A stretch of DNA of 64,000 nucleotides from an uncultured bacterium (lineage in GTDB: Bacteria; Cyanobacteriota; Vampirovibrionia; Gastranaerophilales; Gastranaerophilaceae): assembly GCA_902802825.1 (NCBI GenBank), contig CADCNV010000001.1:567-64566 (forward strand). The letters are read 5' to 3'. Of this stretch, positions 3,609 through 32,778 are shown piece by piece. Every line of letters begins with the position of its first letter. The first letter of the stretch is position 1. The translations under genes were made by a program, and so were the position numbers. Under the pieces are notes generated by a model, which searched no databases, was not told the origin of the DNA, and saw nothing but the letters and a program-made list of their open reading frames with translations.

Positions 3609-3680
3609 GTTCTTATCCTTTCTTGTTTGATAGTAATATTATATAATAAACATTGATAAACAAACATAATTTTTGGGGTA

Positions 3681-4151
3681 ATTTACATAAATCATATTAT
3701 AGGAATATGTTTGAGAAATAATATTTCTCTTTGTTCACTTTTCTTTTTGATTGCGACGCAAAAAGAAAAGTGAACCGAAAAGAAAAACACGCTATGGTAC
3801 AATACTGCCTTACGGCAGCATAAGACCGCTTCCGCGGTAATATGTGTTTTTGCCTTTCAGGCAAAAATCTCTTAGCGCTGCTAAAACTACGCAGCGCACT
3901 AGGGAAGTTTTCATCAAAGGCGCCGTTGTTTTAGGCGCCTGATAGATTTTTGTCCGTTAGGACAAAAACGTATGCTCGTCCTAAGACTTATATCTTAAGT
4001 GCGTGGCGATGCCGGCAGGCATTGCTGTGCTTTAGCGTTTTTCTCTTTCTTGGTTCTATTCTTTCTCTTTTCATCGCAAGAAAAGAGAAAGAATGAACAA
4101 AAAGAAATTTTCAATCTCTCAATATATTCCTATAATATGATTTATGTAAAT
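3681..4151. mobile_element. Foldback MITE/BIME-like element A (471 bp) with a perfect 28-bp TIR and an internal hairpin mosaic
   Basis: 3681-3708 is the exact reverse complement of 4124-4151. About 10 GC-rich stem-loops lie between them. The two arms are inverted copies with compensatory stem changes. Confidence 0.7.
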
Positions 4152-4157
4152 ATTATG

Positions 4158-5453
4158 TTATTTTACATAATATTTACGCAATTTTGTAATCATAACAAGG
4201 CATAATATTACTGACGAACTCAAAAGCCCTATCCAAAAACCTTTTAAGTACATTTTCAAATGTAACCCGAGATAACAACCCAAAGGAATTGATACGCACC
4301 AATAGGCAATAAAGTTTGCAAGCATAATGATTTTTGTTTGTTTAATTCCTTTACAAATCCCCGAAAGCGAAATTTGTAATCCGTCAAAAATCTGATAACC
4401 CGCCAAAATTACCATTACAGGAAGTACAATCTGATACAATTTTGGGTCCGGGGTGAAAATTGAAACGATAAATTTTGGCAATGATAAATAAACAAGTGCG
4501 CAAATTGTCATAAATGATAGTGACATTCCGATACCTGCAAATGAATATTTTTTAAAGTCGTAAAAGTTCCCTGAACCGTTTGCAAAACCGACTTTTACCG
4601 CAATACCGTTTGAAATTGCAAATGGTATCATAAATGTCATGTTTACCAAAGTTATTAAAATATTTTGTCCTGCTGCATAAATTCCTGCAATCCTTCCCAT
4701 TAAAACTGCAACGATATTAAATGCGACAAATTCAACAAGTATAGCTATGGCAATCGGCAATCCGATTTTTAAAAGGGCCTTGTAGTAGCCCTTTTCGTGG
4801 AAATTTCTCAGCTCCATAATTTTGTGGCAGTAAATTAAAAGAGCAAATCCCATAAAATATCTTACGATAAAACTTGAAACGGCAAGTCCGATAACCCCCA
4901 TTGACGGGATTATTCCCCAGCCAAAAACAAAAATTATATTAAGTGCAAGATTTAAAAATACGCTGAAAATGGTTACTAAATTAGGAAATAATACGATTTC
5001 AAATGCCTGTAAAAATTCTTTTAAACTGTGATGTAAACCGCCGCCAAAAGTTGAAAATGCGCTTATCAGCATATAATCCTGAATCGGCTTAACAAGTTTT
5101 TGCTCAAATCCGATGTGCGGAATAATCGGTATAAATAAAAGAATTAGCAAACATGAAACCCCTGCAAGCCAAAGAGCAAATCTTATTGACGGATAAAAAT
5201 ATCTTTTTATCGGCTTCCCTTCTCCGTTGTAGTTTGATAATAGCGGAGAAATGCTTGCAGTTAATCCGATTGCAAGAGTCATAATGCAGTTTACTATTGC
5301 CGCCGCAAGACTGATTGCGGCAAAGGTATCTGTCGAATGCCGACCGGCAACGATTATATCCCCAATGCCGATAAAAATAAATCCGACGTTGCCGAGTATG
5401 ATCGGGAATGCGATTTTTAAAAGTTCTTTTATATAATAAATCGGCTTGTGCAT
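4158..5453 (-). CDS. MATE family efflux transporter
   Basis: 431 aa, about 12 TM segments, typical MATE N-terminus (LLKIAFPIILGN...). Confidence 0.8.
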   Translation of the reverse strand: MHKPIYYIKELLKIAFPIILGNVGFIFIGIGDIIVAGRHSTDTFAAISLAAAIVNCIMTLAIGLTASISPLLSNYNGEGKPIKRYFYPSIRFALWLAGVSCLLILLFIPIIPHIGFEQKLVKPIQDYMLISAFSTFGGGLHHSLKEFLQAFEIVLFPNLVTIFSVFLNLALNIIFVFGWGIIPSMGVIGLAVSSFIVRYFMGFALLIYCHKIMELRNFHEKGYYKALLKIGLPIAIAILVEFVAFNIVAVLMGRIAGIYAAGQNILITLVNMTFMIPFAISNGIAVKVGFANGSGNFYDFKKYSFAGIGMSLSFMTICALVYLSLPKFIVSIFTPDPKLYQIVLPVMVILAGYQIFDGLQISLSGICKGIKQTKIIMLANFIAYWCVSIPLGCYLGLHLKMYLKGFWIGLLSSSVILCLVMITKLRKYYVK

Positions 5454-5522: not shown

Positions 5523-5867
5523 CTATTTTGAAACTGTTTCAAAAATTACATCAAATGCTTCAGAATCTCTTACTGCCATATCAGCAAGCATTTTTCTGTT
5601 TACAACAACATTTGCTTTTTTGCATGCATTTACGAATTTTGAATAGCTCATACCGCGTTGTCTTACTGCTGCGTTGATTCTTACAATCCACAATCTTCTC
5701 ATATTGCGTTTTGTAGTACGACGATCTCTGTAAGCATACTTAAGTGCTTTCATTACAGCGATGTTTGCTACTTTAAAGATTCTGCTTCTTGCACCAATAA
5801 AACCTTTAGCAAGTTTTAATATTTTTTTGTGCCTTTTAACACCGGCACTACCACGTCTAATTCTCAT
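5523..5867 (-). CDS. rplT: 50S ribosomal protein L20
   Basis: 114 aa. [23 protein letters not shown]...YAYRDRR is a canonical L20 sequence. Confidence 0.95.
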
Positions 5868-5878
5868 TTTTCATGCTC

Positions 5879-6088
5879 CTATCTTGAATACTTCTTGTAT
5901 GGTAACTCTTTAGATACCAGTGCTACATGTGACTCAGAAACGTCAACCATCTTGAAAATTCTGCGTTTTCTTGATGCTGACTTGTGTTGGAGCAAGTGGC
6001 CGATGCCTGCTTGTCTTTTCATAATTTTGCCGCTTGCAGTAACTTTATAACGTTTTGCTGCGGATCTGTGTGTTTTTAATTTTGGCAT
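5879..6088 (-). CDS. rpmI: 50S ribosomal protein L35
   Basis: 69 aa. MPKLKTHRSAAKRYKVTASGKI... An aaggag SD lies upstream. No infC precedes it. Confidence 0.95.
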   Translation of the reverse strand: MPKLKTHRSAAKRYKVTASGKIMKRQAGIGHLLQHKSASRKRRIFKMVDVSESHVALVSKELPYKKYSR

Positions 6089-6109
6089 TTCGTTTCTCCT
6101 TTTTTGTTT

Positions 6110-6133
6110 GTTGGCGCATCAACGCCAACCTAC
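6110..6133 (-). repeat. GTAGGTTGG-type hairpin (copy c) in the rpmI leader
   Basis: The minus strand reads gtag gttggcg ttgatg cgccaac. The hairpin base lies 21 nt upstream of the rpmI ATG, just before the SD. Confidence 0.7.
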
Positions 6134-6342
6134 GTACATCTTCTTCGCTTCATAGGCATACCAAGGCCTATTTCGGCTGTGTGTTCATATTAGTATGAAC
6201 ATATTTCTTTTGCAATAGGTTTATTCCAAATTTTGAATCACAACCTTTATAATGTAACAATTCCTTAACAATAACCAATAATTTTCTAAAGTTTTAATTA
6301 AATATGCCGATTATTCATTTGTAAGGAAACAAGGGATTAACT

Positions 6343-6873: not shown

Positions 6874-6926
6874 TTATAAATCCTCGTATTGAGGGCATCA
6901 CAAGTGTTTACAAGAAAGTGTATATA

Positions 6927-6958
6927 ATATCTTCTCTAACAGGAGAAGATATTTTTTT
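6927..6958 (+). terminator. Intrinsic terminator
   Basis: atatcttctc / taacag / gagaagatat followed by ttttttt. Confidence 0.75.
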
Positions 6959-7002
6959 ATCCTGTTGGCGAATTATATTTTTCATGTTATGGGTAATTAT
7001 AG

Positions 7003-7482
7003 CTACATAAAACATATTATCGGTATGTATGTTTTGACAAACTACCTTGCCCCATTTCTTTGACCGCAAAGAAACGGGGCGCAAAGAAACTCCCCGACCT
7101 GAACTACGTTCGCTAATCATTTGTACGCCCTCGCATTAAGTGAATACGGCTTACGTCTAATATCCTCTGCTCGGGCTATGCTCCACATTCAGGCGAGATA
7201 ACTCACTATCGTTCAGACAAATCCCGCCTTGTTGTCGTGTCGCAAACAATGATTGCTCACTTCGTAAAGGTCGGAAATCTTACAGGTGTGCGGGGCGTTG
7301 TCCTTAGCCCCGCTAAGAGATTTTTGCCCCAAGGCAAAAATACATATTACCACGAAGTGGTCTTATGCTGCCGTAAGGCAGTATTGTACCCTAGCGTGTT
7401 TTTCTTTTTTGGTTCGTTTTTTCTTTTTGCTTCAAGACAAAAAGAAAAAATGAACAATATACCAATAATATGTTTTATGTAG
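7003..7482. mobile_element. Foldback MITE/BIME-like element B (480 bp), same TIR family as element A
   Basis: ctacataaaacatattatcggtat (7003-7026) against ataccaataatatgttttatgtag (7459-7482) matches 23/24 as an inverted repeat. 7311-7405 is the reverse complement of about 95 nt of element A. Confidence 0.7.
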
Positions 7483-7506
7483 TCAGGCAAAATGAGGATT
7501 TATACT

Positions 7507-32019: not shown

Positions 32020-32778
32020 CTATACCAATTCAGGAACTTTTACAGAATTTCTGTTAGCAATTTCAACCAAAGCTGAAATTGTAGCCATCATTGAAAGTTC
32101 TGAAGATAATTTATTAACACAAGAACCGCATCCGATAGCACTTGCGCCTGCTGCAAAAGCAAACGGTGCAGTTGTAGGATTGATACCTGTTGCTGTCATC
32201 ACAGGAATCTCAACGTTTCTGCAAAGTTCAATTGTATTTGAAATAGTTAATTCTGCTCTGTCCATCAATGCTCTTGCACCTGTCATTTCAGCGTGAGCAT
32301 GGTAATGTCCTTCAGTCTGAATCAAATCAATACCCATTTCTTCCAAATGATGCGCAAGTTCAATTTGTTCGGCTGTAGAAATTTCACCGGGGATTGTAAC
32401 ACAGAAAAATACATCACTGTCACCGATTAAAGATTTTGTTTCTTTAACGATGTTTAAAACTTCTTCAGCACTGAATGAACGACCTTCTTTATACAATGTA
32501 TCAAAGTTACCTACTTCCAAGCCGTCTGCTCCGAGTTCAACCGCTCTTGCAAGTTCTGACGGAACAACAGATGATACAAAAACAGGCATATCCGTCATTG
32601 AACGGATTTCTCTGACTATATCTTCTCTTGCACAGATATCAACTGCACTTGCACCTGATTTTTCTGCGGAAGTTACAACTTTTTTAATGTTTTCAATATC
32701 AAAATTATCAATACCTGCGATAATTTTTACTGCTCTTTTTTCTTCTAAATGATGTTTGAATAAATCAATTCTTGACAT
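32020..32778 (-). CDS. DUF561/Ycf23-like TIM-barrel protein
   Basis: KIIAGIDNFDIENIKKVVTSAEKSGASAVDICA resembles cyanobacterial/plastid Ycf23 (from memory). Confidence 0.6.
   Translation of the reverse strand: MSRIDLFKHHLEEKRAVKIIAGIDNFDIENIKKVVTSAEKSGASAVDICAREDIVREIRSMTDMPVFVSSVVPSELARAVELGADGLEVGNFDTLYKEGRSFSAEEVLNIVKETKSLIGDSDVFFCVTIPGEISTAEQIELAHHLEEMGIDLIQTEGHYHAHAEMTGARALMDRAELTISNTIELCRNVEIPVMTATGINPTTAPFAFAAGASAIGCGSCVNKLSSELSMMATISALVEIANRNSVKVPELV

Follow-up and report, generated by a model that had tools for sequence, protein, structure and literature searches.

Non-coding chromosomal elements with inverted dif-like ends, co-varying hairpins and three-strand motifs in an uncultured rumen bacterium

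The cer and psi sites consist of a Xer core with about 200 bp of accessory sequence on the side of the XerC arm. In attP(+) of CTX-phage and in integron attC sites, single-stranded DNA (ssDNA) forms a hairpin at whose base two inverted core sites pair into a single duplex site. Such sites are substrates of tyrosine recombinases of the Xer/IntI group, their structure is better conserved than their sequence, and the intervening region measures about 90 nt in CTX-phage and 20–100 nt in attC. In the pdif modules of Acinetobacter, pairs of inverse 28-bp dif-like sites bound plasmid segments that carry genes (resistance, toxin-antitoxin and others), follow one another in alternating orientation and are shuffled in the absence of a transposase (PMC6449649; PMC13141974). 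The dispersed extragenic BoxC/PIT/TMECO repeats, whose function has been open since the 1990s, combine a pyrimidine arm, a loop, a purine arm, a short linker and a second purine arm; one strand thereby has the order of triplex class II and its complement that of class III or IV (PMC4666352). Here, we describe el1, at positions 3680–4152 of a 64-kb stretch of contig CADCNV010000001.1 from an uncultured bacterium (in the following, the window), which can be read as two inverted dif-like sites around an interior of approximately 417 bp.

Together with a second family member, el2 (7000–7485), el1 resembles the Acinetobacter modules in its two inverse 28-bp sites, in the alternating orientation of these (el1, four genes, el2), in shuffling and in the lack of a transposase. 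It differs from them in that the elements are chromosomal, non-coding, highly structured and 0.43–0.79 kb in size, that their hosts belong to an unclassified rumen clade, and that neighbouring modules share no sites; their context is one of chromosomal housekeeping genes, and no plasmid match was found. As in cer and psi, a conserved module of approximately 200 bp lies on the XerC-type side of each core, whereas in plasmid multimers cer and psi occur as direct repeats, each a single site, and their accessory DNA binds ArgR/PepA or ArcA and is not hairpin-rich. Compared with attP(+) and attC, the interior is long (about 420 nt), and phage genes, cassette ORFs (open reading frames) and the attC R/L box consensus are all missing. 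In contrast to BoxC/PIT/TMECO, the tracts of el1 and el2 are A/T-rich, 11–13 nt long and placed above a co-varying 5-bp stem and a 1-nt linker, and they display three-way covariation across copies beside recombinase-type sites.

We propose that el1 belongs to a low-copy family of chromosomal elements that do not code for protein and resemble dif modules. We give this reading about an even chance of being correct, and it overlaps in part with the alternatives weighed below. Each of its ingredients has precedent, namely dif modules, intrastrand triplex repeats and mosaic repeats similar to miniature inverted-repeat transposable elements (MITEs), and full-text searches of the literature gave no description of non-coding chromosomal dif-bounded modules with three-way co-varying triplex motifs. 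If the ends are truly Xer sites, the idea of dif modules is no longer confined to the resistance plasmids of Acinetobacter but takes in chromosomes, a distant uncultured lineage and cargo that is entirely non-coding.

The dif-like ends

In the initial annotation, el1 was presented as a foldback of hairpins within perfect 28-bp terminal inverted repeats (TIRs). The repeat is real: positions 3681–3708 are the exact reverse complement of 4124–4151, the match grows to 31 nt at 97% identity, and nothing comparable arose in 100 dinucleotide-preserving shuffles. The dif-like site extends about 4 nt past the TIR as first delimited. The left site (3680–3707, minus strand) reads TATTCCTATAA-TATGAT-TTATGTAAATT, with the XerC-type arm innermost (3707–3697), the spacer at 3696–3691 and the XerD-type arm outermost (3690–3680, all on the minus strand); the right site (4125–4152, plus strand) reads TATTCCTATAA-TATGAT-TTATGTAAATA. 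Read outward, an el1 end is thus TATTCCTATAA TATGAT TTATGTAAAT(a/t), to be compared with the dif sites of Bacillus subtilis, ACTTCCTAGAA TATATA TTATGTAAACT, Escherichia coli, GGTGCGCATAA TGTATA TTATGTTAAAT, and F. alni, CACGCCGATAA TGCACA TTATGTCAAGT (PMC3025954).

The position matrix used for scoring was built on 37 dif sites published for six phyla (PMC3025954) and was applied either over all 28 positions or with the central, non-contacted 6 nt ignored (arms-only). With the full matrix, the el1 ends are the top two of the 128,000 window positions and the el2 ends rank 4th and 12th. With the arms-only matrix, the left and right ends of el1 again come first and second, at 21.9 and 15.7 bits, respectively. 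The left site of el2 (7000–7027, minus strand) scores 10.0 bits by this matrix, and the right site (7458–7485, plus strand; 4.5 bits with the full matrix) scores below 7.8 bits, outside the top ten. Across the family, 20 element ends exceed 17.9 bits and reach up to 25.7, which compares with at least 18.7 bits (median 23.7) for the training dif sites, with a mean of 13.3 and a highest value of 17.9 bits for the maxima of 30 window shuffles, and with 13.9 bits for the best non-element position in approximately 530 kb of real sequence (all arms-only).

Position counts over 50 ends reveal an invariant inner ATAA/TTAT palindrome and variable outer bases, and the first base outside the site is A in 35 of them. 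These ends thus share with dif the conserved inner palindrome, the variable outer parts and the better conservation of the XerD arm; the same inner-conserved, outer-variable pattern is seen in dif and pdif sites (PMC6449649). All 13 complete copies have the XerC-type arms pointing inward and the XerD-type arms outward at both ends. Where the spacers depart from the consensus, they are matched within the module: TATGAT at both ends of el1, TATTAT at both ends of the related element L020b and TATGAT at both ends of a mini element at locus L040 (loci in relatives are cited by L numbers). Such matching is expected of sites that recombine or pair with each other and not of transposon ends that decay independently. 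The sites do not behave as a single-copy terminus dif, because four of them fall within 3.8 kb, always as inverted pairs, and several pairs occur per genome. From the resemblance to dif, the TIRs of el1 are most likely binding and crossover sites of a Xer-type tyrosine recombinase and not transposase ends.

Additional half-sites resembling the XerD arm can be read directly from the sequence at 4153–4177 (TTATGTTATTT on the plus strand, TTATGTAAAAT on the minus strand). They abut el1 within the last codons of the neighbouring MatE gene and, together with the outer el1 arm, make up a palindrome of 13 bp. A similar head-to-head pair of outer arms, 13 bp apart, is found at L015 2377–2407. Both may be footprints of past site-to-site events.

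A dispersed and mosaic family

El1 lies between the genes named in the initial annotation. On one side, 6 nt separate it from the stop codon of the MatE gene; on the other, a gene for a 719-aa protein of the ADP-forming acyl/acetyl-CoA ligase type starts at a distance of 73 nt. Both genes are on the minus strand. As stated in that annotation, there is no credible ORF inside el1, and no transposase or recombinase was detected among the approximately 55 window ORFs scanned against Pfam. The interior consists of module A twice, in inverted and diverged versions (types A1 and A2), in agreement with the earlier view of the right arm as an inverted copy of the left; the alignment of the left half with the reverse complement of the right half gives about 68% identity.

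El2, at 7003–7482, had been overlooked and was found by a relaxed search with the end sequence; its inverted repeat is 24 nt at 96% identity. The left 270 nt (7028 to approximately 7300) make up module B, which has a distinct branched fold, and the right 170 nt (approximately 7300–7457) are module A in inverted form, 84% identical to the inverted left arm of el1. El2 ends 10–25 nt upstream of the start of an OmpH-like gene. A predicted 70-aa ORF (6908–7120, minus strand) spans its left site and is probably spurious. At locus L031, a 26-bp deletion in module B of el2 (window 7156–7181) falls within a sub-domain that is wholly absent from other family members.

The two elements are 2.85 kb apart, on either side of MatE, rplT, rpmI and a gene for a 176-aa protein. 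Elements often occupy neighbouring intergenic regions in this way, as they do at L020 and L015, and the neighbouring el1 and el2 create the alternating site orientation of dif-module arrays. The initial annotation had proposed that further copies be collected from this and related genomes, and a dispersed family was indeed recovered. One exact-pattern scan of species-representative genomes gave 16 loci, 15 of them from five rumen genome bins (RUG13924, RUG11085, which is the species of the window, RUG12313, RUG12020 and RGIG4922), and a metagenome scan added 11. All end scans of genome, metagenome and viral collections were by exact pattern and in fragmented assemblies; most genome matches are at contig ends, as repeats that break assemblies would be. 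At least 13 copies are complete (430–790 bp), and some 3–5 are seen per genome bin of about 2 Mb. The copies are mosaic: module A occurs in two subtypes, module B with or without a sub-domain, and a hairpin may hold an inserted module C of approximately 105 nt in its apical part; blocks rich in G/C also occur. A BLAST search of phages and plasmids with el1 gave no match, and in viral contigs neither the end pattern nor two interior motifs had matches beyond those expected by chance. In practical terms, the repeats interrupt the assembly of genomes from this clade and lead gene callers to annotate spurious ORFs across them.

The elements are well conserved in place. All close strains carry el1 and el2 at 98.8–100% identity. 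Relative to RUG11085 (L012), el1 has 3 differences in 440 positions (99.3% identical) and el2 has 12 in 480 (97.5%); third codon positions of eight flanking genes are on average about 93% identical to those of L012, which predicts approximately 30 differences per element. The shortfall implies constraint on the elements, or their homogenisation. Downstream of the MatE stop codon, an element is present in the species of the window, at the loci L013, L027 and L041 (77% protein identity), and also at L040 (80%); the element begins 6–8 nt past the stop in three species and overlaps it in a fourth. Around L040 4790–4890, it takes the form of a mini element of approximately 100 bp, two inverted dif-like sites around about 65 bp, at the 3´ end of MatE; the MatE stop codon lies within one of its sites, and the downstream gene is recG, not the CoA ligase. 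In L012, at approximately 7020–7030, a 32-nt deletion takes out the whole el1 28-mer on the CoA-ligase side (window 3678–3709); either the copy is truly “disarmed” or the assembly is in error. El1 is missing from a 92%-identical relative (L039), in which a gene for 118 aa with no Pfam match occupies 4869–5225 between the MatE and CoA-ligase genes. The gene order upstream of rpmI is also different there, meaning that the neighbourhood has been rearranged between close species. A base-exact empty site was not found, the close strains all being filled and L039 being too diverged.

Orientation varies as well. When L013 and L027 are placed with their flanks co-oriented, the flanks align plus/plus at 92% and 81% identity and run 22 and 31 nt into the ends, and the interior between them aligns in the minus orientation. 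This implies inversion of the interior between its two sites. Family members are found between tandem, convergent and divergent genes.

The initial annotation likened el1 to a MITE or to a mosaic of the BIME type, and part of the likeness stands. As with Correia, ERIC, BOX, the BrickBuilt repeats of P. gingivalis and BIMEs, the members of this dispersed mosaic repeat family are short, lie between genes, do not code for protein and occur in several copies; they have inverted ends, are predicted to fold strongly and are composed of bricks. A classical MITE would be a deletion derivative of a DDE transposon whose transposase, encoded elsewhere, binds the TIRs, with hairpins that are incidental or serve the element as RNA. 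The breaking of assemblies at copies, the missing element in L039 and the mini derivative in L040 would suit such an origin, but the ends do not behave as those of a transposon. A target-site duplication is lacking, since no consistent direct repeat was present at eight complete copies. The outermost bases are the least conserved; the ends fit the 28-bp dif/Xer consensus, and both ends of a copy change together. The exact-pattern matches to the ends in the fragmented assemblies of genome, metagenome and viral collections are all short and non-coding, with no longer, transposase-bearing element having the same ends. A low copy number, persistence at orthologous sites across species and conservation above that of synonymous sites also set the family apart from MITEs and mosaic repeats. 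We consider this origin decidedly unlikely.

Hairpins and three-strand motifs

The predicted fold of el1 (471 nt) has an energy of −207.5 kcal/mol on the plus strand and −203.1 kcal/mol on the minus strand, and shuffled sequences fold at about −100 ± 6 kcal/mol (z = −17.0 and −17.4, respectively). The description of the interior as a chain of hairpins is thus borne out on both strands. The centre (3805–3968) is a G+C-rich succession of short hairpins at 3805–3818, 3825–3838, 3847–3867, 3875–3897, 3918–3940 and 3947–3968, with compensated changes in the stems and conserved loops. All of the stem pairs listed in the initial annotation are present: gcgctgc/gcagcgc (3875–3897) and aggcgcc/ggcgcct (3918–3940) around the loop taaaac(t/a)ac, tttttgcct/aggcaaaaa (3847–3867) and tttttgtcc/ggacaaaaa (3947–3968), ctgcc/ggcag and atgcc/ggcat, and the long pair made up of a 17-bp stem (3733–3775) and a 15-bp stem (4058–4094).

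The earlier suggestion that structure is conserved rather than sequence is borne out by covariation across family copies. Over 12 copies, pairing in the gcgctgc hairpin, which has a 7-bp stem, amounts to 97.6%, compared with 83.3% in shuffles, and the covariation score of this stem, 0.348 compared with 0.091, was not reached in any of 500 shuffles; controls in which the stem was slid collapse. Other stems and module B covary likewise. Almost all stem variants replace one Watson-Crick pair by another. The single mismatches comprise 7 G-T and 8 A-C, and G-U accounts for about 5% of the predicted pairs on both strands. An RNA acting from one strand normally tolerates G-U and hence displays a G-U bias. 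The lack of any G-U excess on either strand points to hairpins that fold as DNA, or that need to fold on both strands, and not to one RNA. Attempts to choose a strand failed, in that G-U and A-C counts gave no bias and folding energies were inconsistent across copies.

Immediately inward of each site lies a hairpin whose 5´ arm is homopyrimidine and whose 3´ arm is homopurine; behind it comes a purine block that mirrors the 3´ arm exactly (reversed and not reverse-complemented), a motif that had escaped the initial annotation. In the left motif of el1 (3733–3787, plus strand), the stem is formed by 3733–3749 and 3759–3775, with a 5-bp base of GTTCA/TGAAC and the tract CTTTTCTTTTT (3738–3748) paired to AAAAAGAAAAG (3760–3770); the mirror copy, GAAAAGAAAAA (3777–3787), follows after a 1-nt linker. 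The right motif of el1 (4039–4094, plus strand) has the third strand TTTTCTCTTTCTT (4039–4051), the pyrimidine tract TTCTTTCTCTTTT (4059–4071) and the purine tract AAAAGAGAAAGAA (4081–4093), which on the plus strand is the pyrimidine-motif (class IV) order. In the right motif of el2 (7399–7450, plus strand), the corresponding blocks are TTTTTCTTTTTT (7399–7410), TTTTTTCTTTTT (7417–7428) and AAAAAGAAAAAA (7439–7450). A short motif at the left of el2 (7055–7089, plus strand) is made up of TTTCTTT (7055–7061), AAAGAAA (7068–7074) and AAAGAAA (7083–7089). With tracts of at least 8 nt, el1-left, el1-right and el2-right are the only such motifs in the window, and none occurred in 20 shuffles.

The G positions of these tracts vary among copies, and all three blocks change together. 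In addition to AAAAAGAAAAG with GAAAAGAAAAA, purine (R) arms and mirror blocks are matched as AAAAGAGAAAGAA with AAGAAAGAGAAAA, AAAAAGAAAAAA with AAAAAAGAAAAA, AGAGAAAGAAA with AAAGAAAGAGA, AAAAGAAAAGAAA with AAAGAAAAGAAAA and AAAGAAAGA with AGAAAGAAA; the exact three-way agreement extends over nine A/T-rich variants and one G/C-rich variant. The usual geometry is a co-varying 5-bp base stem (GTTCA/TGAAC, GCCGT/ACGGC, GTCTG/CAGAC or GACCG/CGGTC) and a 1-nt linker. A mirror repeat cannot be created by duplication or inversion. The third block was also considered as a Watson-Crick partner, of the kind seen in an anti-terminator or for the opposite arm, and this was rejected: it is a mirror and not a complement, cross-arm partners differ, and there is no in-register pairing with the pyrimidine arm or with the opposite end. 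At the level of sequence, the covariation of three strands is the signature of an intrastrand triple helix, in the arrangement of Hoyne/Maher and Holder et al. (PMC4666352). The motif is class II (purine) on the strand read inward and class IV (pyrimidine) on the complementary strand; class II is restricted to DNA and class IV is possible in both DNA and RNA (PMC4666352).

The TMECO consensus itself, CCCTCNCCC N3-6 GGGNGAGGG N3 GGGNGAGGG, is absent from el1 and el2 and was found only in two relatives. L010 (minus strand, element at 5811–6303) and L015a (L015 2640–2700) carry CCCTCTCCC-N3-GGGAGAGGG-N3-GGG(A/T)GAGGG, the E. coli TMECO/BoxC pattern, as bricks. To our knowledge, the family would present the first natural case of three-way covariation in an intrastrand triple-helix motif. 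If that holds, the evolutionary record supplies direct evidence that triplexes of this kind form in bacteria and are of consequence there.

A large structured non-coding RNA (ncRNA), which the initial annotation had put forward as a possibility, would have the end repeats as its closing helix; on the strand that reads towards an end, the neighbouring motif would form a U.A-U/C+.G-C triple helix and guard the 3´ end as ENE/MALAT1 elements do. The extensive compensatory changes and the conservation in excess of synonymous sites are what such a family would show. The class IV order can form in RNA (PMC4666352, introduction), and a 1-nt linker over a 5-bp stem suits A-form groove geometry under the loop rules of pseudoknots. 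On the A-to-B strand, the internal loops of module B are conserved and rich in purines, and tandem G.A mismatches occur in this module; on the same strand, el2, L007 and L013 fold better by 15–23 kcal/mol and 55% of the unpaired bases are purines, although the strand differences are inconsistent across copies and the copies are not independent. Several findings speak against a single ncRNA. G-U pairs are not in excess over A-C on either strand, the elements take both orientations relative to the same flanking genes and occur in all three gene contexts, and the closing helix keeps its sequence across copies, where free covariation would be expected of an RNA. Insertion and deletion of modules make the content mosaic. 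Rfam 15 at gathering thresholds gave no match over the whole window, and permissive scans of el1, el2 and four related loci returned only sub-threshold miRNA and leader matches, which we take as chance matches to hairpins. Promoter-like consensus matches in the el1 and el2 regions are not above those in shuffles. We thus regard an ncRNA of this kind as quite improbable.

A possible mechanism and the remaining alternatives

In the reading as a dif-module-like element, each module would be bounded by two inverted 28-bp dif-type sites with their XerD-type arms outward, and recombination between the two sites of one module would invert it. Recombination or gene conversion between the sites of different copies could shuffle and spread the interior “bricks”, as proposed for the Acinetobacter dif modules, and would explain why the modules are mosaic, why their spacers match and why their ends are so highly conserved. 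The interior would be selected to fold single-stranded on either strand, most simply as DNA. In the single strand, the two end sites may pair at the foot of the foldback and so make up a single dif-like duplex, flanked by the triplex motifs; the same logic applies in the attP(+) hairpin of CTX-phage and in integron attC sites. The acting recombinase, present-day recombination, the folding as DNA rather than RNA and a benefit to the cell are what we infer from these patterns, and, as for the benefit, the elements might block transcription in both directions behind genes, act as a phase switch or simply persist as selfish DNA. A bolder possibility, unlikely in our judgement, is that the modules are a new recombination substrate, giant sites similar to attC or CTX attP in which folded ssDNA rebuilds one duplex dif-type site and the triplex motifs beside each half serve as clamps or recognition features that keep the folded form stable. 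The housekeeping Xer system could then invert, exchange or copy non-coding DNA with no protein encoded by the element. The family is a defined and testable system, with 28-mers for Xer binding and short oligonucleotides for triplex melting.

Several observations weigh against the proposal of a dif-module-like element. Both el2 sites score below the shuffle maxima with the arms-only matrix, and the dif match is to a cross-phylum consensus in an AT-rich genome, the Xer gene and dif site of the clade itself not having been seen in the DNA examined. Inversion is demonstrated for one orthologous pair; a second apparent flip, at L019, may be an assembly chimera (element 99.8% identical, flank only 85%), and RecA-dependent recombination between the 24–31-bp repeats could be an alternative cause of inversion. 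Excision-type mobility of the el1–el2 segment is implausible, because it holds rplT and rpmI. The known dif modules are plasmid-borne and gene-carrying, and the Xer literature consulted offers no explanation of hairpins or triplex motifs. Finally, the slight purine excess among unpaired bases on one strand and the better folding of three copies on that strand leave room for an RNA or for a strand-specific role.

A recombinase that flips a segment with an outward promoter or terminator, toggling a neighbouring gene, would make the elements phase-variation switches (invertons). This has in its favour inverted recombinase-type sites around a segment of a few hundred bp, an orientation that differs between species at one orthologous locus, and positions close to gene starts, as for el2 and the OmpH-like gene and for L015a, 36 nt before a purD-like gene. 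It is very unlikely nevertheless: el1 is nearly symmetric and a flip changes little, copies are also found between convergent genes (L020b), promoter signals do not exceed chance, no recombinase gene lies beside any copy examined, and the hairpins and triplex motifs are left unexplained.

A search for terminator-like matches gave one in the el1 region (shuffle mean 0.7) and three in the el2 region (shuffle mean 0.5), two of which are inside el2 and the third in the upstream spacer; all are weak and the stems are not followed by U-tracts. REP/BIMEs are defined by 20–40-bp REP palindromes with GTAG/CGTC tags and by an associated RAYT transposase. Visual inspection, without a formal REP/RAYT search, revealed no unit of this kind, and none of the window ORFs scanned matched a transposase-type Pfam family. 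A passive REP/BIME-like element, acting as a two-way transcription barrier, a stabiliser of mRNA 3´ ends or a supercoil-sensitive DNA structure with a fortuitous likeness to dif, would fit the positions at the MatE stop codon in four species, the perfect stems on both strands that a two-way barrier requires and the existence of extragenic intrastrand triplex repeats of unknown function (PMC4666352), but it is highly improbable in view of the few and weak terminator-like matches, of the lack of terminator or promoter activity that a passage of PMC4666352, citing its reference 41, attributes to PIT elements, and of the 28-bp dif-format ends with matched spacers across species, which it leaves unexplained.

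Upstream of el2, after the gene for the 176-aa protein, a 12-bp hairpin with a T-run at 6926–6953 resembles an ordinary intrinsic terminator and is apart from the element. With respect to the host, the four RUG bins fall into one clade labelled only “Bacteria” by Stewart et al. (2019), and RUG11085 comprises 1.65 Mb at 80% completeness. A lineage similar to Melainabacteria would be a guess, prompted by a DUF561 gene, envelope genes of Gram-negative type, the G+C content and a genome of about 2 Mb. Neither tRNA nor rRNA was found in the 64 kb with Rfam. The G+C content of the window is about 35%, and its genes, at 32020–32778 and over the window as a whole, include DUF561, MlaE, two OmpH-like proteins, a secretin together with type II secretion system (T2SS) proteins E and F, an FeFe hydrogenase and the glycine cleavage system, which suggests a Gram-negative anaerobe with a small genome.

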